Positions 43,659-52,554 of a stretch of 64,000 nucleotides of DNA are shown here, in pieces. The position numbers and the translations under genes were made by a program. This DNA is from Escherichia coli. GTDB taxonomy: Bacteria; Pseudomonadota; Gammaproteobacteria; Enterobacterales; Enterobacteriaceae. The notes under the pieces were generated by a model. The model was not told the DNA's origin, did not search any database, and saw only the letters and a program-made list of their open reading frames with translations. Positions within the stretch are counted from its first letter, which is position 1. Each line of letters opens with the position of its first letter. The stretch lies in NCBI RefSeq assembly GCF_048403405.1, contig NZ_CP183129.1; one strand, written 5' to 3'.

Positions 43659-46600
43659 ATGAACAGGACCAGTCCCCATTATTGTCGCCGCTCAGTACTT
43701 TCCTTATTGATATCTGCCTTGATATATGCTCCGCCCGTGATGGCGGCCTTTACTACTAATGTTATTGGTGTGGTAAACGATGAGACTGTAGATGGCAGTC
43801 AAAAAGTAGATGAACGAGGTACAACAAATAATACTCATATTATCAACCATGGCCAGCAGGATGTTTATGGTGGGATATCTAACGGAAGTATTATTGAATC
43901 TGGTGGATATCAAGATGTAGGAAGGCATAACAATTATATGGGGCAGTCTAATAATACAACCATTAACGGGGGCAGACAGTCAATTCATGACGGAGGGATT
44001 TCCACAGGTACAATAATTGAGAGTGGCAATCAGGACGTTTATACAGGTGGTATCAGCAATGGAACGACAATTAAGGGTGGTAATTCACACATAAGTGGGG
44101 GGACTGCGAATGGAACCATCATTGATGGTGGAGGGCAGACAGTAACAACTCAGGGGCATGTTGATGGTACAACGATAAATAAGTCCGGTTATCAGGACAT
44201 CACGCAAGGAAGTCTGGCGACGAACACAACCATAAATGGTGGTCGACAGTATGTTGAACAGAGCACAGTAGAAACAACCACCATTAAAAATGGCGGTGAG
44301 CAAAGAGTATATGAGAGCCGTGCGCTGGACACGACGATTGAAGGCGGAACTCAGTCTCTGAATAGTAAGTCAACGGCAAAAAATACTCAGATCTATTCTG
44401 GTGGTACGCAAATTGTTGATTACACCAGCACCTCGGATGTTATTGAAGTTTATTCCGGTGGCGTGCTTGATGTTAGTGGTGGTACGGCAACAAATGTTAC
44501 CCAGCACGATGGTGCAATTTTAAAAACAAACACTAACGGTACGACGGTGAGCGGTACGAATAGTGAAGGGGCATTCTCCATCCACAATACCGTGGCAGAG
44601 AATGTGTTGCTGGAAAACGGTGGTCATTTAGACATAAACGCATATGGTTCGGCAAATAAGACGATTATTAAAGATAAAGGAACAATATCAGTTTTAACGA
44701 ATGCTAAAGCTGATGCGACCCGAATAGATAATGGCGGCGTTATGGATGTTGCCGGAAACGCGACAAATACCATAATTAATGGTGGCACACAGAATATTAA
44801 TAATTATGGTATTGCCACGGGCACCAATATCAACAGCGGAACACAAAATATCAAGAGCGGCGGGAAAGCTGACACGACAAATATATCCTCTGGGAGCCGG
44901 CAGGTTGTTGAGAAAGATGGTACGGCAACTGGCAGCAATATTAGCGCCGGAGGCTCGCTGATTGTCTATACCGGCGGTATTGCACATGGGGTTAACCAGG
45001 AGACGGGCAGTGCTTTAGTTGCCAACACGGGCGCAGGGACTGATATCGAAGGATACAATAAGCTCTCTCACTTCACTATTACCGGAGGTGAGGCTAATTA
45101 TGTTGTGCTGGAAAATACCGGCGAACTGACGGTAATGGCTAAAACCTCGGCGAAAAATACTACCATTGATGCTGGCGGTAAGCTGATTGTCCAGAAGGAG
45201 GCTAAAACAGATAGCACCAGACTTAATAATGGTGGCGTTCTGGAGGTTCAGGACGGTGGTGAGGCTAAGCATGTTGAGCAGCAATCCGGCGGCGCATTAA
45301 TTGCTTCCACGACCTCCGGAACACTTATCGAAGGAACCAACAGTTATGGTGATGCTTTCTACATCAGGAATTCAGAAGCTAAAAATGTAGTGCTGGAAAA
45401 CGCTGGCTCATTAACAGTCGTCACTGGTTCCCGGGCAGTTGACACGATTATTAATGCCAACGGCAAAATGGATGTTTATGGAAAAGATGTTGGTACTGTA
45501 CTTAATAGTGCTGGTACCCAAACAATATATGCCAGTGCCACTTCTGAAAAAGCAAATATCAAAGGTGGCAAGCAAACGGTATATGGTTTAGCCACTGAGG
45601 CAAATATCGAAAGTGGTGAACAAATTGTTGATGGTGGGTCAGCAGATAAAACGCACATCAATGGCGGTACGCAAACCGTTCAGAATTATGGTAAGGCGAT
45701 CAATACCGATATCGTCTCTGGCCTACAACAAATTATGGTAAACGGGACAACGGAAGGTTCCATTATTAATGGCGGTTCACAGGTAGTTAATGAGGGCGGT
45801 CTGGCTGAAAACTCGGTGCTTAATGACGGCGGCACTCTCGATGTGCGGGAGAAAGGCAGCGCAACGGGGATACAGCAAAGTAGCCAGGGCGCGTTGGTTG
45901 CAACCACCAGAGCGACGCGGGTCACAGGGACACGCGCTGATGGCGTCGCGTTCAGCATTGAGCAGGATGCGGCGAACAATATCCTGCTGGCAAATGGCGG
46001 CGTGTTAACCGTGGAGTCAGACACCACTTCCGCCAAAACACAGGTCAATGCGGGCGGGCGGGAGATCGTCAAAACAAAAGCCACTGCGACAGGCACGACG
46101 CTCACCGGCGGCGAACAAATCGTCGAGGGGGTGGCGAATGAGACAACGATTAACGACGGCGGAATACAAACAGTTTCGGCTAACGGTGAGGCAGTAAAAA
46201 CAACGATTAATGAAGGCGGTACGCTGACAGTCAACGATAATGGCAAAGCGACAGATATCATCCAGAACAGCGGTGCCGCTCTCCAGACGAGCACGGCTAA
46301 CGGTATTGAAATCAGCGGTACTCACCAGTACGGCACCTTTTCCATTGCCGGAAATTTAGCGACCAATGCGTTGCTGGAAAATGGCGGTAATTTATTGGTA
46401 TTAGCAGGTACCGAAGCCCGTGACTCCACGGTTGGCAAGGGTGGTGCAATACAAAACCTGGGTCAGGACTTCGCCACAAAGGTTAATTCTGGTGGACAAT
46501 ATACCCTCGGTCGGTCAAAAGATGAGTTTCAGGCTTTGGCCCGGGCAGAAGATCTACAGATCGCTGGCGGGACGGCAATCGTCTACGCAGGTACGCTGGC

Positions 46601-48233
46601 GGATGCATCGGTCAGTGGCGCGACAGGAAGCCTGTCGTTAATGACGCCACGGGATAATGTTACGCCAGTTAAACTTGAAGGGGTGGTCCGGATTACCGAT
46701 AGCGCGACATTAACTATCGGAAATGGCGTCGATACGACGCTTGCCGACCTGACGGCTGCCAGTCGGGGCAGTGTCTGGCTTAACAGCAATAATTCCTGTG
46801 CAGGCACCAGCAACTGCGAATATAGAGTAAACAGTTTACTCCTCAACGACGGTGATGTTTATTTATCAGCACAAACAGCAGCGCCTGCCACAACTAACGG
46901 TATCTACAATACGCTGACCACCAGTGAACTTTCCGGCAGCGGTAATTTCTACCTGCATACCAACGTTGCAGGCTCCCGGGGCGATCAACTGGTCGTCAAC
47001 AACAACGCCACTGGCAATTTTAAAATCTTTGTTCAGGATACCGGCGTCAGCCCTCAGTCTGACGACGCGATGACGCTGGTGAAAACAGGGGGAGGGGATG
47101 CTTCGTTTACGCTGGGTAATACCGGCGGTTTCGTTGATCTTGGGACCTATGAGTATGTCCTGAAAAGCGACGGCAACAGCAACTGGAACCTGACCAATGA
47201 TGTCAAACCCAACCCGGACCCCAACCCAAATCCGAAACCGGATCCAAAACCAGACCCAAAACCGGATCCGAAACCAGACCCGACTCCCGATCCAACGCCG
47301 ACACCCGTCCCGGAGAAACGCATCACGCCTTCTACGGCAGCCGTACTCAATATGGCAGCAACATTACCGTTGGTCTTTGATGCTGAGCTAAACAGTATTC
47401 GCGAGCGGTTGAACATAATGAAAGCGAGTCCACACAACAATAATGTCTGGGGGACGACGTATAACACCCGTAATAATGTCACCACCGATGCGGGTGCCGG
47501 GTTTGAGCAGACGCTGACCGGAATGACGGTGGGGATCGATAGCCGTAATGATATTCCTGAGGGGATTGCGACGCTGGGCGCTTTTATGGGTTATTCCCAT
47601 TCACATATTGGTTTTGATCGTGGAGGGCATGGCAGTGTGGGCAGTTATTCTCTGGGGGGCTATGCCAGCTGGGAACATGAAAGTGGTTTCTATCTGGACG
47701 GTATCGTGAAGCTGAACCGCTTTGAAAGTAACGTAGCCGGTAAAATGAGCAGCGGTGGAGCCGCCAACGGCAGTTATCGCAGCAACGGGCTGGGCGGTCA
47801 CATTGAAACCGGGATGCGATTTACCGATGGTAACTGGAACCTGACGCCGTATGCATCGTTAACGGGGTTCACCGCTGATAACCCCGAATATCATTTATCC
47901 AATGGCATGGAATCGAAATCAGTCGATACCCGTAGTATATATCGTGAACTGGGCGCAACGCTGAGTTACAACATGCGTCTGGGGAACGGCATGGAAGTTG
48001 AGCCGTGGCTGAAGGCGGCTGTGCGCAAAGAATTTGTCGATGATAACCGGGTGAAAGTGAATAATGACGGTAATTTTGTCAATGATTTGTCGGGCAGACG
48101 TGGAATATACCAGGCAGGTATTAAAGCCTCATTCAGCAGTACGTTAAGCGGACATCTCGGGGTGGGGTATAGCCATGGTGCCGGTGTGGAATCCCCGTGG
48201 AACGCGGTGGCTGGTGCGAACTGGTCGTTCTGA
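43659..48233 (+). CDS. ypjA: Adhesin-like autotransporter (type Va secretion) with repetitive passenger domain
   Basis: ORF track 43530-48233; likely start ATG 43659 (or 43650) giving signal peptide MNRTSPHYCRRSVLSLLISALIYAPPVMA; Gly/Thr/Asn-rich repetitive passenger, Pro-rich PNPDPNPNPKPDPKPDP linker (about 47200-47310) and C-terminal beta-barrel ending ..AGANWSF. Confidence 0.75.
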   Translation: MNRTSPHYCRRSVLSLLISALIYAPPVMAAFTTNVIGVVNDETVDGSQKVDERGTTNNTHIINHGQQDVYGGISNGSIIESGGYQDVGRHNNYMGQSNNTTINGGRQSIHDGGISTGTIIESGNQDVYTGGISNGTTIKGGNSHISGGTANGTIIDGGGQTVTTQGHVDGTTINKSGYQDITQGSLATNTTINGGRQYVEQSTVETTTIKNGGEQRVYESRALDTTIEGGTQSLNSKSTAKNTQIYSGGTQIVDYTSTSDVIEVYSGGVLDVSGGTATNVTQHDGAILKTNTNGTTVSGTNSEGAFSIHNTVAENVLLENGGHLDINAYGSANKTIIKDKGTISVLTNAKADATRIDNGGVMDVAGNATNTIINGGTQNINNYGIATGTNINSGTQNIKSGGKADTTNISSGSRQVVEKDGTATGSNISAGGSLIVYTGGIAHGVNQETGSALVANTGAGTDIEGYNKLSHFTITGGEANYVVLENTGELTVMAKTSAKNTTIDAGGKLIVQKEAKTDSTRLNNGGVLEVQDGGEAKHVEQQSGGALIASTTSGTLIEGTNSYGDAFYIRNSEAKNVVLENAGSLTVVTGSRAVDTIINANGKMDVYGKDVGTVLNSAGTQTIYASATSEKANIKGGKQTVYGLATEANIESGEQIVDGGSADKTHINGGTQTVQNYGKAINTDIVSGLQQIMVNGTTEGSIINGGSQVVNEGGLAENSVLNDGGTLDVREKGSATGIQQSSQGALVATTRATRVTGTRADGVAFSIEQDAANNILLANGGVLTVESDTTSAKTQVNAGGREIVKTKATATGTTLTGGEQIVEGVANETTINDGGIQTVSANGEAVKTTINEGGTLTVNDNGKATDIIQNSGAALQTSTANGIEISGTHQYGTFSIAGNLATNALLENGGNLLVLAGTEARDSTVGKGGAIQNLGQDFATKVNSGGQYTLGRSKDEFQALARAEDLQIAGGTAIVYAGTLADASVSGATGSLSLMTPRDNVTPVKLEGVVRITDSATLTIGNGVDTTLADLTAASRGSVWLNSNNSCAGTSNCEYRVNSLLLNDGDVYLSAQTAAPATTNGIYNTLTTSELSGSGNFYLHTNVAGSRGDQLVVNNNATGNFKIFVQDTGVSPQSDDAMTLVKTGGGDASFTLGNTGGFVDLGTYEYVLKSDGNSNWNLTNDVKPNPDPNPNPKPDPKPDPKPDPKPDPTPDPTPTPVPEKRITPSTAAVLNMAATLPLVFDAELNSIRERLNIMKASPHNNNVWGTTYNTRNNVTTDAGAGFEQTLTGMTVGIDSRNDIPEGIATLGAFMGYSHSHIGFDRGGHGSVGSYSLGGYASWEHESGFYLDGIVKLNRFESNVAGKMSSGGAANGSYRSNGLGGHIETGMRFTDGNWNLTPYASLTGFTADNPEYHLSNGMESKSVDTRSIYRELGATLSYNMRLGNGMEVEPWLKAAVRKEFVDDNRVKVNNDGNFVNDLSGRRGIYQAGIKASFSSTLSGHLGVGYSHGAGVESPWNAVAGANWSF

Positions 48234-48244
48234 CCATCAACGAA

Positions 48245-48267
48245 AAAGCCCACATCTGTGGGCTTTC
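48245..48267 (+). terminator. Candidate intrinsic terminator after ypjA
   Basis: aaaaagcccacatctgtgggcttt hairpin (8-bp stem) 12 nt after the ypjA stop. Confidence 0.45.
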
Positions 48268-48393
48268 ATATCACCAAGAGCCGCGGCTCCTTTGCGTATC
48301 CTTTTATGTCTCCTCACCGTCTGGTCGGTGTCTTGCTGAGACTTCTAACTTCCTGTTTTTGTTGGTGTTGTCCTTGCACCGTCCAATCATGAT

Positions 48394-48756
48394 TGGTGGA
48401 GCTGGCGGGAGTTGAACCCGCGTCCGAAATTCCTACGTCCTCGGTACTACATGCTTAGTCAGTCTTTACATTCGCTTGCCAGCTGCGGACGGACACGCCA
48501 CTAACAAACTAGCCTGATTAAGTTTTAACGCTTCAACCCCAGGCAGGGCTTCCACGCGATCTCTTTTGGGTTTGACCTCTCTTGATCCCCGTCCTAAGAG
48601 CGGAGGCTAGGGAGAGAGGGCTCTAAGCAGGTTATTAAGCTGCTAAAGCGTAGTTTTCGTCGTTTGCGACTATTTTTTGCGGCTTTTTACGAGGCCAACC
48701 GCCCCTCGGCATGCACCTTGGGTTTCGCAAATCCCGTCGAATCCAGAATCAGCCCC
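48394..48756 (-). ncRNA. ssrA: tmRNA (SsrA, 10Sa RNA)
   Basis: 363 nt; minus-strand sequence begins ggggctgattctggattcgacggg and ends ..ctcccgccagctccacca; contains the tag ORF gcaaacgacgaaaactacgctttagcagcttaa (ANDENYALAA). Confidence 0.97.
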
Positions 48757-48970
48757 AATGTGTAACGGTAAGTATACCAGATTCATGAGTGCCATGACCA
48801 GCCTCAATGGCGTTATCGTTAAAGATTTATCACCCATGTAGCCTGATTTTTATTCGATTAAGCAATGGGATGGCAACATTTGGGTCGGATGTGATAGCCA
48901 ATAAGATGTGCATTCGCGCCGCCGGAGAGGGAGGCGCGGTGAGGAGCGGATCAATAATTGCAGTGCAGGT

Positions 48971-49453
48971 TTAACGGTGGGCGTTTTTCATGATACGCGC
49001 TTTATCCACCTGCCATTCGCGTTCTTTGATATCTGAACGTTTATCATGCTGTTTCTTACCTTTGGCGACGCCGATTTTCACTTTGCACCAGGCATTTTTC
49101 CAGTACAGGGAGAGCGCCACTACGGTATAGCCTTCTCGATTGACGCGACCGTACAATGAGTCCAGTTCGCGCTGGTTGAGAAGTAACTTGCGGGTACGGG
49201 TAGGATCGCACACCACATGCGTGGAGGCCACAGCCATTGGCGTGATGTTAGCTCCAAACAGAAATGCCTCTCCGTCACGCAGAAGGACGTAGCTGTCGCT
49301 GATATTGGCTTTTCCTGCGCGCAGGGATTTAACCTCCCAGCCTTGCAGGGCAAGTCCCGCCTCGAACTCTTCTTCGATAAAGTATTCGTGACGGGCGCGC
49401 TTGTTAAGCGCGATGGTCGCTGAACCAGGTTTATGTGCTTTTTTCTTCGTCAT
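48971..49453 (-). CDS. smpB: SsrA-binding protein SmpB
   Basis: 160-aa [50 protein letters not shown]..; immediately upstream of ssrA. Confidence 0.96.
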
Positions 49454-49584
49454 AAGCGTCGTGAATCATCGGTAATCTGAAATCGAAAACACCCCATATC
49501 AATCCTGCGGGGGACAAGGCTCTATCTTAGCATGAACCCGATGTTACCCAGCGCCGGGATAGCGTTTTTTTTACAGCAGGATAA

Positions 49585-50061
49585 ATGATATTATTTGTTG
49601 GATTTTTGTTGATGGAAATTGTTATGCCTCAGATTAGCCGGACCGCACTGGTACCCTACAGCGCGGAGCAAATGTATCAGTTAGTGAATGACGTTCAGTC
49701 TTATCCTCAGTTTTTGCCGGGTTGTACCGGAAGTCGGATTCTGGAGTCCACTCCTGGGCAGATGACTGCGGCGGTAGATGTCTCTAAGGCTGGGATCAGC
49801 AAAACGTTTACTACCCGCAACCAGTTGACCAGTAACCAAAGTATTCTTATGAATCTGGTGGATGGGCCGTTCAAGAAATTGATCGGTGGATGGAAGTTTA
49901 CGCCGCTGAGCCAGGAGGCGTGTCGTATCGAGTTTCATCTCGATTTTGAGTTTACCAATAAGTTGATTGAACTCGCCTTTGGTCGCGTGTTTAAAGAGCT
50001 GGCGGCTAATATGGTCCAGGCTTTTACGGTTCGTGCGAAAGAGGTTTACAGTGCCAGGTAA
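49585..50061 (+). CDS. ratA: Ribosome association toxin RatA (SRPBCC/polyketide cyclase-like)
   Basis: 158-aa ORF; conserved core from [21 protein letters not shown].. (alternative ATG at 49624); divergent from smpB as in E. coli. Confidence 0.85.
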
Positions 50062-50341
50062 AATTGCCGTTGAGGTGGCTTATGCGCTACCTGAGAAGCA
50101 GTACCTGCAGCGCGTGACGCTGCAGGAGGGAGCGACGGTTGAAGAAGCTATTCGCGCCAGTGGTTTGCTGGAATTGCGTACCGATATCGATTTAACTAAA
50201 AACAAAGTCGGCATTTACAGCCGTCCGGCCAAACTGAGCGATACCGTGCATGATGGCGATAGGGTGGAGATTTATCGTCCTCTCATTGCCGATCCGAAAG
50301 AGCTGCGCAGGCAACGAGCAGAAAAATCAGCGAATAAATAA
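50051..50341 (+). CDS. ratB: UPF0125 protein RatB (YfjF)
   Basis: GTG start at 50051 overlapping the ratA 3' end gives 96 aa (V/M)[21 protein letters not shown]..; ORF track lists a longer 49967-50341 frame. Confidence 0.75.
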
Positions 50342-50348
50342 CAGACAG

Positions 50349-50377
50349 AAAAAAGGTGCTCATTGAGCACCTTTTTT
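50349..50377. terminator. Bidirectional intrinsic terminator between ratB and bamE
   Basis: aaaaa-ggtgctca-t-tgagcacc-tttttt: GC stem flanked by an A-run and a T-run. Confidence 0.7.
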
Positions 50378-50402
50378 AACGTCTTTGAGAGCAACTTTAT
50401 TA

Positions 50403-50744
50403 TTAGTTACCACTCAGCGCAGGTTTATTATCAATATTGGTCAACACCCCGCTACTATTAAAGGTCAGCGTCAGCGTTTGCTGCGTTACACCTTCATGAC
50501 CTGGTTGCTGGCGGAAGACATAGAACCAGGTATTCGTACCAAATGGATCGGACATCAGCGGTGTACCCAATGCGTACGCAACTTGTTGTTGCGTCATGCC
50601 AACGCGTATTTTGGATACGTCGTTAGCGGTCAGATAGTTCCCCTGGTTGATGTCAGGACGGTAAACCACTCGCTCCAGAGTGGAACAGCCTGCGGTCAAC
50701 ATCAATAGTACTGCTGCTGCAGCAGTCAGCGTTTTACAGCGCAT
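50403..50744 (-). CDS. bamE: Outer membrane protein assembly factor BamE (SmpA/OmlA lipoprotein)
   Basis: 113-aa ORF with lipoprotein signal and lipobox LTAGC. Confidence 0.93.
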
Positions 50745-50892
50745 AGTGATTTGATTCCTTTTCGGGCCCGAGCAGTACGTGGCTCATCTGTAATATGCCG
50801 ATGATAATAGACCTTTCATCACTTTAAAACCTTTTGCTTTCCGGTCTTACGGCGTTTTGCTGTTTACTCTGACCGTGAAGCAGGAAAAAAGT

Positions 50893-52554
50893 TTACGCCG
50901 CAAGTAGTTCTTTCGCATTCGCCAGTGTGTTACGTGTGACTTCACTGCCACCAAGCAGGCGCGCCAGCTCTTGTAACCGCGCTTTTTTATCCAGGGATTG
51001 CATATGCGTTTCTGTCATCGCACCATCGGTTTCTTTGCTGACAAAATAGTGTTGATGACCACATCCCGCGACTTGTGGCAAGTGGGTAACACACATCACC
51101 TGAGTTGATTCGCCAAGTTGACGCAGCAGTTTGCCGACAACTGCCGCTGTTGGACCGCTAATCCCTACATCCACTTCATCAAAAATCAGTGCCGGGGTTT
51201 CCATTTTACGCGCCGTGATGACCTGAATTGCCAATGCGATGCGTGACAATTCACCACCGGATGCGACTTTGGCAATAGGCTGCATTGGCTGACCTGGGTT
51301 GGTGGTTACCCGAAATTCAATACGATCAGCGCCGTCAGCGCCCAGGTGATGCTCGTCAAATTTAACATCAATCGTAAACTGCCCATGCGGCATAGAGAGT
51401 GCATGCATACTGTCGGTGATCAGCTGTGCAAGTTCTTCTGCATAGTGCTGGCGTTGCTGGTGTAATGCGTGCGCGGTTTCCAGTGCCTGCTGATGATGTT
51501 TCGTTACCGCCAGCGCGAGCGTTTCTTGTGAGTCGGCCTGATCGTCCAGTTGCTGCTGTTCTTCCAGTAGCGACTGGTAATACTGTGGCAATGCCTCAGG
51601 GCTGACGTGATGTTTACGTGCCAGCGAAATCTGTTTTGAGATGCGCTGTTCAAGTTCAAACAGTCGGTTGGGATCGAGATCCAGACGATCGCAGTAGTGG
51701 CGCAGTTCATCGCTGGCTTCAGCAATCTGGATGGTAGCTTCTTCCAGCATATCAAGTACGCCGGACAGTTTGCTGTCCATGCCAATCAATTCGCTCACCA
51801 GTTGTTTAGCCGTGTAAAGCTGACTTTGCAGGTTTGCGTCTTCACCGTCGGCCATTACTGCCAATGCATTCTGGCTGGTAGTCAGCAATTGACCGCTGTT
51901 CGCCAGACGTTTGTACTCTTCGTCGATTTGCTCAAACTCTCCGGGCTGCGGATTAAATTCGTTAAGTTCTTTTAATTGGTATTGCAGCAGTTCCGCACGG
52001 GCGGCGCGTTCCTGACTTAACTGTTGATGATGCGCGAGGTCACGGCAGCTTTGATGCCACAACTGATAACGTGCGGTCATTTCCTGGAGCAGAGAGGTTT
52101 CATTGGCATAGCCATCAAGCAGGAATTTTTGGTGCTCGGGTTTGGTGAGTAACTGATGGGCGTGCTGACCATGGATCTGAATCAACAACTGGCCCAGTTC
52201 GCGAAGTTGTGACAGAGGAACAGCTGTACCGTTGATAAAACCTCGTGAGCGACCATCGCTACTGATTACGCGACGAAGCAAACATTCATGACCGTCTTCA
52301 AGCTGGTTTTCTTCCAGCCAGCGCAGGGCCGCTGGCGTATCTTTCAGAGAAAAACGGGCGCACAGGTCGGCACGAGCAGCGCCGGTACGCACCATGTCGG
52401 CTTCAGCGCGACCACCGAGACAAAGGCCGAGGGCATCTATTGCAATAGATTTACCCGCGCCGGTCTCGCCAGTTATTACGGTCATGCCGCTATGAAAATC
52501 AATCTCAAGCTCACGAACGATAGCAAAGTTGCTGATGGTCAGTTGTGCCAACAT
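50893..52554 (-). CDS. recN: DNA repair protein RecN (SMC-like ATPase)
   Basis: 553-aa ORF with Walker A GETGAGKS and coiled-coil middle region. Confidence 0.95.

Follow-up and report, generated by a model that had tools for sequence, protein, structure and literature searches.

The ratA-ratB locus

The window analysed here is a stretch of 64,000 nucleotides from Escherichia coli, and its region from approximately 48.4 to 50.8 kb is the E. coli ssrA-smpB / ratA-ratB / bamE-recN neighbourhood, in which ratA-ratB is the core-genome operon pasT-pasI (alias yfjG-yfjF). The genes and other large features of the region are the following.

48394..48756, minus strand: ssrA tmRNA (ARAGORN, tag ANDENYALAA; Rfam RF00023, 292.8 bits)
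48971..49453, minus strand: smpB (Pfam PF01668), divergent from ratA
49585-50061, plus strand: ratA open reading frame as listed, 158 aa if read from the first ATG
49585..49623, plus strand: the 13 codons added by the K-12-style annotation of 158 aa, assigned here to non-coding DNA (promoter -10 region and 5' UTR) from stops, frameshifts and absence of codon periodicity
49624..50061, plus strand: ratA/pasT coding sequence, physiological form of 145 aa, a Coq10-like START/Polyketide_cyc protein, with stop codon TAA at 50059-50061
50051..50341, plus strand: ratB/yfjF/pasI coding sequence, a 96-aa RnfH-family ubiquitin-like protein with a GTG start
50051..50061, plus strand: the 11-nt ratA/ratB overlap, GTGCCAGGTAA
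50349..50377, no strand assigned: terminator hairpin between the convergent ratB and bamE (terminator scan; 13-bp stem with flanking A/T runs)

The two genes of the pair share the plus strand in different frames and, as a sequence-only reading of this DNA had described, adjoin smpB and ssrA, which lie immediately upstream on the minus strand. E. coli strain CE0007a matches the 1-kb segment 49400-50400 at 100% identity, and at least 80% of the segment is found in 5424 of 5426 complete E. coli genomes at a median of one copy; the ratA-ratB locus itself is present in 5425 of the 5426, also with a median copy number of 1. The orthologous locus was further collected from 80 Enterobacteriaceae species, with one genome for each, and counts given below out of 81 refer to the resulting 81-sequence set. 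The order smpB-ratA-ratB-bamE is kept in every untruncated locus of these species, and synteny of smpB with ratA holds for 79 of the 80 species loci.

Compared with K-12 MG1655, positions 49454-49883 show no nucleotide differences and the RatA protein is identical. Two synonymous differences are found in ratA, and RatB carries one substitution (T65 here, S65 in K-12). Since the promoter region and RatA are identical to those of K-12, the experiments published on the K-12 gene (PMC11988751) apply to this locus. K-12 RatA/PasT (b2619, for which the name UbiM has been proposed) likewise has the same three in-frame ATGs and the same ratB overlap, and nothing material differs.

The hairpin at 50349-50377 has a perfect 13-bp stem with A6/T6 flanks and looks like a bidirectional intrinsic terminator between ratB and bamE. 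An Rfam scan of 48300-50900 returned nothing above threshold except the tmRNA. A sub-threshold match to RmaA at the terminator hairpin (27.4 bits versus a threshold of 57, E = 0.057) was taken as a chance or terminator artefact.

Conservation of the candidate RatA start codons

Read from 49585, the RatA N-terminus is M1-ILFVGFLL-M10-EIV-M14-PQISR. The sequence-only reading had pointed to two in-frame ATGs, at 49585 (M1) and 49624 (M14); both are real, and a third at 49612 (M10) was overlooked. It had also proposed an alignment of orthologues as a way to choose between the two starts. In the alignment of the 80 species, protein-level conservation begins at Met14 and the extension is not conserved, which supports the short form. 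Viewed from the single sequence the ambiguity is genuine, and it is resolved by the comparison together with published experiments; the predicted anti-Shine-Dalgarno (anti-SD) pairing energy does not separate M1 (-3.4 kcal/mol) from M14 (-3.3 kcal/mol).

All 81 sequences have the ATG corresponding to 49624. The ATG corresponding to 49585 is also found in all 80 species, whatever its frame, and in 26 of them the long form is not encodable because of a stop or a frameshift. In-frame stops between the Met1 ATG and Met14 occur in 14 species, among them Citrobacter braakii, C. werkmanii, C. portucalensis, Salmonella enterica subsp. arizonae and Kluyvera ascorbata, and the Met1 ATG is out of frame in a further 12 (+1 nt in 11, -1 nt in one). 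Two loci that had been mis-sorted by pattern match were assigned from per-locus inspection of the extension. No 3-nt indels were found between the Met1 ATG and Met14 in the 80 species, just +1 and -1 changes, a pattern that, judged from the alignment, marks non-coding DNA under a loose constraint on its length.

The 49585 frame is open in 54 of the 80 species (54 of the 68 with in-frame spacing), including all Escherichia, Klebsiella and many Enterobacter. An open 13-codon frame at this frequency is no more than the chance expectation, since promoter or Shine-Dalgarno (SD) constraint spares just about 7 of the 13 codons and an estimated 70% or so of unconstrained sequences would stay open.

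Variability by codon position separates the two parts of the annotated frame. In the body of the open reading frame it is 0.063/0.031/0.346 for the first, second and third positions, which on this alignment is the classical pattern of purifying selection. Extension codons 5-13 show no periodicity (0.266/0.353/0.295), and codons 1-4 (ATG nTA TTA TTT) vary just at the first position (0.217/0.011/0.0), a pattern that fits a TGnTATTAT DNA motif and is the reverse of the coding expectation. In species outside Escherichia, the body keeps 90% amino-acid identity to the E. coli protein and extension residues 5-13 keep 33%.

Distant homologues and database entries

Distant homologues were collected by an exhaustive HMMER search with the 158-aa RatA query against 1.84 billion representatives, and the best 150 matches, at 36-65% identity, were examined. 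In 118 of these 150 the homologue's first residue lies opposite E. coli residue 14, in 131 it lies within one residue of that position, and the median length of the best 150 is 147 aa. Five alignments that reach query residues before 13 were set aside as long-N-terminus gene calls or low-complexity matches rather than conservation of the extension. The NCBIfam equivalog NF007999 (304.8 bits, cutoff 258) aligns model positions 1-144 to RatA residues 14-157, and Caulobacter CC1736 (PDB 1T17) is matched by phmmer at E = 2e-19, with chain residues 7-147 against RatA 20-156.

The comparison and the published experiments (PMC11988751) place the real RatA start at 49624, giving a protein of 145 aa, so the N-terminus that had been called uncertain is fixed.

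Database entries are divided on this point. The NCBI annotation pipeline PGAP starts ratA at 49624 and ratB at 50051 (in the strain that is 100% identical over 49400-50400), and PGAP-annotated strains carry the 145-aa RatA, yet name it a type II toxin. The hand-curated K-12 MG1655 RefSeq record (NC_000913.3, 2754288-2754764) still has 158 aa and the name 'ribosome association toxin RatA', and long forms of 158 aa make up about half of the 120 close homologues listed (Klebsiella, Salmonella, Kluyvera and others). This is a matter of annotation with practical weight, since cloning the 158-aa frame makes an artificial toxic protein, which led to a decade of conflicting literature.

The ratA promoter and the published RatA start

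The following elements were assigned upstream of and at the start of ratA.

49565..49572, plus strand: T-run upstream of the -10 element, conserved as TTttTTTa; a possible weak -35 or UP-like region
49586..49594, plus strand: putative extended -10 element TGaTATTAT, whose TG coincides with the final two bases of the Met1 ATG (block GatAAATGnTAtTATTT in a 77-sequence alignment)
49600..49602, plus strand: predicted transcription start, 6-8 nt after the -10 element, giving a 5' UTR of approximately 23 nt
49614..49617, plus strand: weak SD-like GGAA, 6 nt before the ATG at 49624 (anti-SD pairing -3.3 kcal/mol)

Three conserved islands stand amid free drift upstream of ratA, namely the T-run, the block GatAAATGnTAtTATTT and a gGaA/AGGA motif 6-7 nt before the true ATG. 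The block can be read as TGnTATTAT, an extended -10 element for sigma-70, with the exact hexamer assignment inferred here. This reading adds a further point, why the false start is so well conserved: the Met1 ATG is retained without serving as a start because its TG belongs to the extended -10 element. A -10 element at 49586-49594 would in turn set the transcription start near 49600-49602 (predicted bases), downstream of the start codon given in the annotation.

A generic sigma-70 scan reported no plus-strand promoter and no canonical -35/-10 pair upstream of ratA, with AT-rich minus-strand matches alone, and its silence on the plus strand is attributable to the poor -35 region; the ratA promoter was recognised through cross-species conservation and the literature. 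Folding of the ratA 5' region is no better than that of shuffled sequences (z = 0.10), with no sign in it of a riboregulator or of masking of the ribosome-binding site.

In K-12, a sigma-70 promoter with its -10 box within the annotated ORF has been described by Fasnacht, Schratt and Moll 2025 (PMC11988751), whose primer extension and dRNA-seq data put the ratA transcription start downstream of both Met1 and the -10 box. The start base is given there as a figure image, and the exact -10 and transcription start positions used here are sequence-based predictions. In the same study M1S reduces both ratA mRNA and promoter score, and no mRNA is left with silent -10 mutations. M14I abolishes both RatA protein and complementation, whereas M1S does not. 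Intact-mass LC-MS of the tagged protein showed that short RatA begins at residue 15, with Met14 removed, and short RatA alone was seen in all growth phases (PMC11988751). The short form alone was likewise observed under starvation, oxidative stress and antibiotic stress (bioRxiv 10.64898/2026.05.04.722385). The short start and the promoter-embedded first ATG are thus already known, having been shown in K-12 (PMC11988751) and implemented by PGAP; the present comparison arrives at the same correction independently and brings no new biology for this window.

Initiation at the middle ATG, 49612 (Met10), would give a RatA of 149 aa. This codon is downstream of the predicted transcription start and hence on the mRNA, and some gene callers pick it, as seen in 149-150-aa entries beginning MEIVMPQ... 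or MEIAMPQ.... The Met10 codon is nevertheless ATG in just 48 of 81 sequences, with GTG in 10 and non-start codons in 23; it shares bases with the conserved SD-like GGAA of the 49624 start, and the U-rich leader before it would be just about 10 nt long. With the LC-MS start at residue 15 and the loss of protein in M14I (PMC11988751) also against it, a Met10 start is almost certainly wrong.

Another possibility is that the 158-aa form from 49585 is a genuine conditional isoform made from an alternative upstream promoter, so that RatA would act as a toxin under some stress. The long frame is open in more than half of the species, the long form is toxic on overexpression, the early papers reported toxin behaviour as far as they are recounted in PMC11988751, and the authors of that study concede a possible upstream promoter. 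Against this stand the stops and frameshifts in 26 of 80 species (S. enterica subsp. arizonae and several Citrobacter and Kluyvera included), the lack of codon periodicity and the low identity of the extension, and its conservation in no distant homologue among the best 150. The short form alone was found in exponential and stationary phase, anaerobiosis, starvation, and oxidative and antibiotic stress (PMC11988751; bioRxiv 10.64898/2026.05.04.722385), and a physiological long isoform is accordingly rated as highly improbable.

Identity of RatA

RatA matches Pfam PF03364 (Polyketide_cyc) over residues 23-148 with 132.5 bits against a cutoff of 23.4, which places a START domain in the protein. 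It also belongs to the curated family NF007999 along its full length and is a homologue of CC1736 (1T17). RatA is a Coq10-like ubiquinone-binding START protein and not a toxin, the homology being established here and the binding taken from the literature. PasT was identified as a Coq10 homologue by Fino et al. (PMC7424257), who concluded that pasTI is no toxin-antitoxin system and found that human COQ10A and CC1736 complement pasT mutants. RatA, for which the name UbiM was proposed, binds ubiquinone-8 (Q8) (bioRxiv 10.64898/2026.05.04.722385), and loss of the K-12 protein impairs aerobic respiration (bioRxiv 10.64898/2026.05.04.722385; PMC7424257).

With Coq10 and CC1736 (1T17) RatA has in common the PF03364 START-like domain and a near full-length phmmer alignment. 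It differs from mitochondrial Coq10 in being bacterial and cytosolic, without a mitochondrial targeting peptide, and from both in having an RnfH-like gene as partner in beta- and gammaproteobacteria.

The early reports of a toxin (Zhang and Inouye 2011; Norton and Mulvey 2012, as cited in PMC11988751) are explained by the finding that the toxic species is long RatA, made only by overexpressing the annotated ORF (PMC11988751). The description of RatA as toxin-like, which the sequence-only reading had carried over, is an obsolete label, as toxicity is confined to the artificial long form.

The ratB start and its relation to ratA

One further element was assigned within ratA.

50041..50044, plus strand: ratB Shine-Dalgarno GAGG within the ratA coding sequence, 6 nt before the GTG (anti-SD pairing -6.5 kcal/mol)

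RatB has no internal Met and consequently needs a non-ATG start. The GTG at 50051, which had been proposed from the sequence together with its overlap of the ratA 3' end, proved correct, and this start is well supported and is the same in the PGAP and K-12 annotations. The architecture GAG[G/A]-N6-GTG is found in the last ratA codons of 81 of 81 sequences. The overlap measures 11 nt in 73 of them and 17 nt in the eight from Citrobacter, which have a 6-nt insertion just after the GTG. The Glu codon that forms part of the ratB SD is GAG in all 81, compared with 64% GAG and 36% GAA at other ratA Glu codons, and the Val and Tyr codons beside it vary at their third positions. The pairing energy of this SD lies at approximately the 5th percentile among positions within ratA and makes it the sole clear SD of the candidate starts. 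The next GTG, at 50075, was rejected as the ratB start; it is not conserved, and initiation there would cut the first beta-strand of the RnfH domain, which begins at residue 5.

A start codon and SD lying together inside the upstream ORF, in a conserved arrangement, are what is found in a coupled overlapping pair. Translational coupling of ratB to ratA is plausible from this layout, since a ribosome that reaches the ratA stop at 50059-50061 has only just passed over the SD and start codon of ratB. Folding of the ratA/ratB junction gives a minimum free energy (MFE) of -26.6 versus a shuffle mean of -28.7 (z = 0.67), with no structure masking the SD.

A stricter form of coupling would make ratB dependent on ratA translation, through termination-reinitiation or ribosome-dependent unmasking, with no independent initiation at its own SD. 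Retention of the 11/17-nt overlap and of the SD inside ratA throughout the 81 sequences is in line with such dependence, as is the strong drop of ratB in a ratA deletion (log2FC -6.75, data not shown in bioRxiv 10.64898/2026.05.04.722385). The ratB SD is, however, strong enough for de novo initiation, and no stable structure hides it. The annotated ORF removed in the deletion strain contains the -10 box, and loss of that box can also account for the drop, an explanation put forward here. Strict dependence is therefore considered doubtful, though it keeps an appreciable share of the probability.

In the overall explanation, which very probably holds, the first ATG is embedded in the promoter, RatA begins at 49624 and is a Coq10-like non-toxin, and ratB begins at GTG 50051; the exact -10 and transcription start bases and the coupling are predictions within it. 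Start-codon conservation, disruption of the upstream frame, the conserved promoter block and the ratB start architecture come from the present comparison, and the transcription start, protein N-terminus, non-toxicity and ubiquinone binding from the literature. On this explanation a sigma-70 promoter drives the operon. Its predicted extended -10 element TGaTATTAT (49586-49594) shares bases with the first in-frame ATG, and because of this overlap the mRNA begins downstream of Met1, at a predicted position near 49600. Translation from the ATG at 49624 then yields the 145-aa Coq10-like START protein, which binds and shuttles ubiquinone. The 158-aa form arises only by artificial expression, and its hydrophobic 13-residue extension makes it toxic. 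Co-transcribed ratB initiates at GTG 50051 from the good SD (GAGG, 6-nt spacing) in the last ratA codons, and with ribosomes that finish ratA passing over this initiation site, coupling is likely.

RatB and the toxin-antitoxin designation

RatB matches Pfam PF03658 (Ub-RnfH) over residues 5-87 of 96 with 121.4 bits (1.9e-35), and NCBIfam NF002490 with 154.7 bits against a cutoff of 75, residues 4-96 aligning to model positions 3-95, which assigns it to the RnfH family. Matches in the PDB are 2HJ1 (Haemophilus influenzae HI0395, 3.2e-28) and 8AHX_H (1.4e-13).

The database names speak for a genuine type II toxin-antitoxin module, in which RatB would neutralise RatA: NF007999 is titled 'type II toxin-antitoxin system RatA family toxin' and PGAP uses 'type II toxin-antitoxin system toxin RatA'. 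Like such modules ratAB is a small, compact two-gene operon with overlapping ORFs, and relief of pasT toxicity by pasI was reported by Norton and Mulvey, as relayed in bioRxiv 10.64898/2026.05.04.722385. It departs from them in several respects. Physiological RatA is non-toxic (PMC11988751), and the toxic extension is not a conserved coding sequence in the present alignment. Pfam detects the Ub-RnfH domain alone in RatB, with no DNA-binding domain and no antitoxin-type domain. The putative toxin gene comes first and ratB second, although the antitoxin is usually encoded first. The locus is core and single-copy (5425/5426 E. coli genomes) and syntenic from smpB to bamE rather than patchy, mobile or multi-copy. 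In addition, strains deleted for ratB are viable, and in bacteria other than beta- and gammaproteobacteria ratA commonly stands alone (PMC7424257, PMC11988751). A toxin-antitoxin function, already largely refuted, is very unlikely.

RnfH of the Azotobacter vinelandii RNF1 complex is a cofactor-less, cytoplasmic subunit (PMC12174285), and both RnfH (8AHX chain H) and HI0395 (2HJ1) resemble RatB as small, cofactor-less cytoplasmic beta-grasp proteins. RatB differs from RnfH in being encoded beside ratA and not in an rnf/rsx operon; no rnf/rsx genes lie near ratB, the flanking genes being smpB, bamE and recN. Tagged RatB is so far undetected and no E. coli partner or function has been reported for it (bioRxiv 10.64898/2026.05.04.722385). 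A Legionella RatB-like protein has been predicted and validated to bind an RnfB-like protein (PMC11445079), and this binding makes a role for RatB with redox complexes conceivable. In a speculative and rather unlikely extension, RatB would be produced in a fixed ratio with RatA by way of the overlapping start and would act as an adaptor, linking RatA as ubiquinone shuttle, or the handling of its cargo, to a membrane redox complex of the Rnf/Rsx type or of another kind. If that were true, ratAB would be a two-part quinone-delivery module of beta- and gammaproteobacteria and not a toxin-antitoxin pair.

Further observations on the locus

Entries in metagenome and Logan assemblies include E. coli-like RatA-RatB fusions of 217-251 aa (P0003, P0005, P0006, P0022, P0109 and P0114), of which P0006 represents 12 member sequences and P0022 represents 29. 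A conserved fusion was rejected since the junctions are heterogeneous, arising from frameshifts or deletions near the ratA 3' end, and the entries are probably sporadic mutations or assembly errors.

Beyond ssrA, the stretch 43530-48394 holds a large adhesin-like autotransporter gene, ypjA/ehaD, which ends 160 nt from the ssrA 3' end. Its start is ambiguous, with an ORF of up to 1567 aa from a GTG at 43530 and a PGAP call of 1524 aa. The CP4-57 prophage (intA onward), which occupies the ssrA attachment site in K-12, is absent in this strain.

Within the smpB-ratA intergenic region, the segment TATCTTAGCA at 49523-49532 is conserved across the 80 species. On the minus strand it reads TGCTAAGATA and contains TGcTAAGAT, a plausible extended -10 element for the divergent smpB promoter with a leader of approximately 64 nt; if this is true, both divergent promoters (smpB and ratA) would be of the extended -10 type. 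Positions 49550-49572 on the plus strand, immediately before the ratA -10 element, hold a terminator-like hairpin, AGCGCCGGGATAGCG, followed by T8. Most of this hairpin lies in a segment of approximately 16 nt that is absent from most other genera and present in Escherichia, C. sedlakii, C. amalonaticus and Citrobacter sp. R56, with the T-run itself conserved. The hairpin might end antisense-smpB transcription, or it may be no more than the upstream portion of the promoter.
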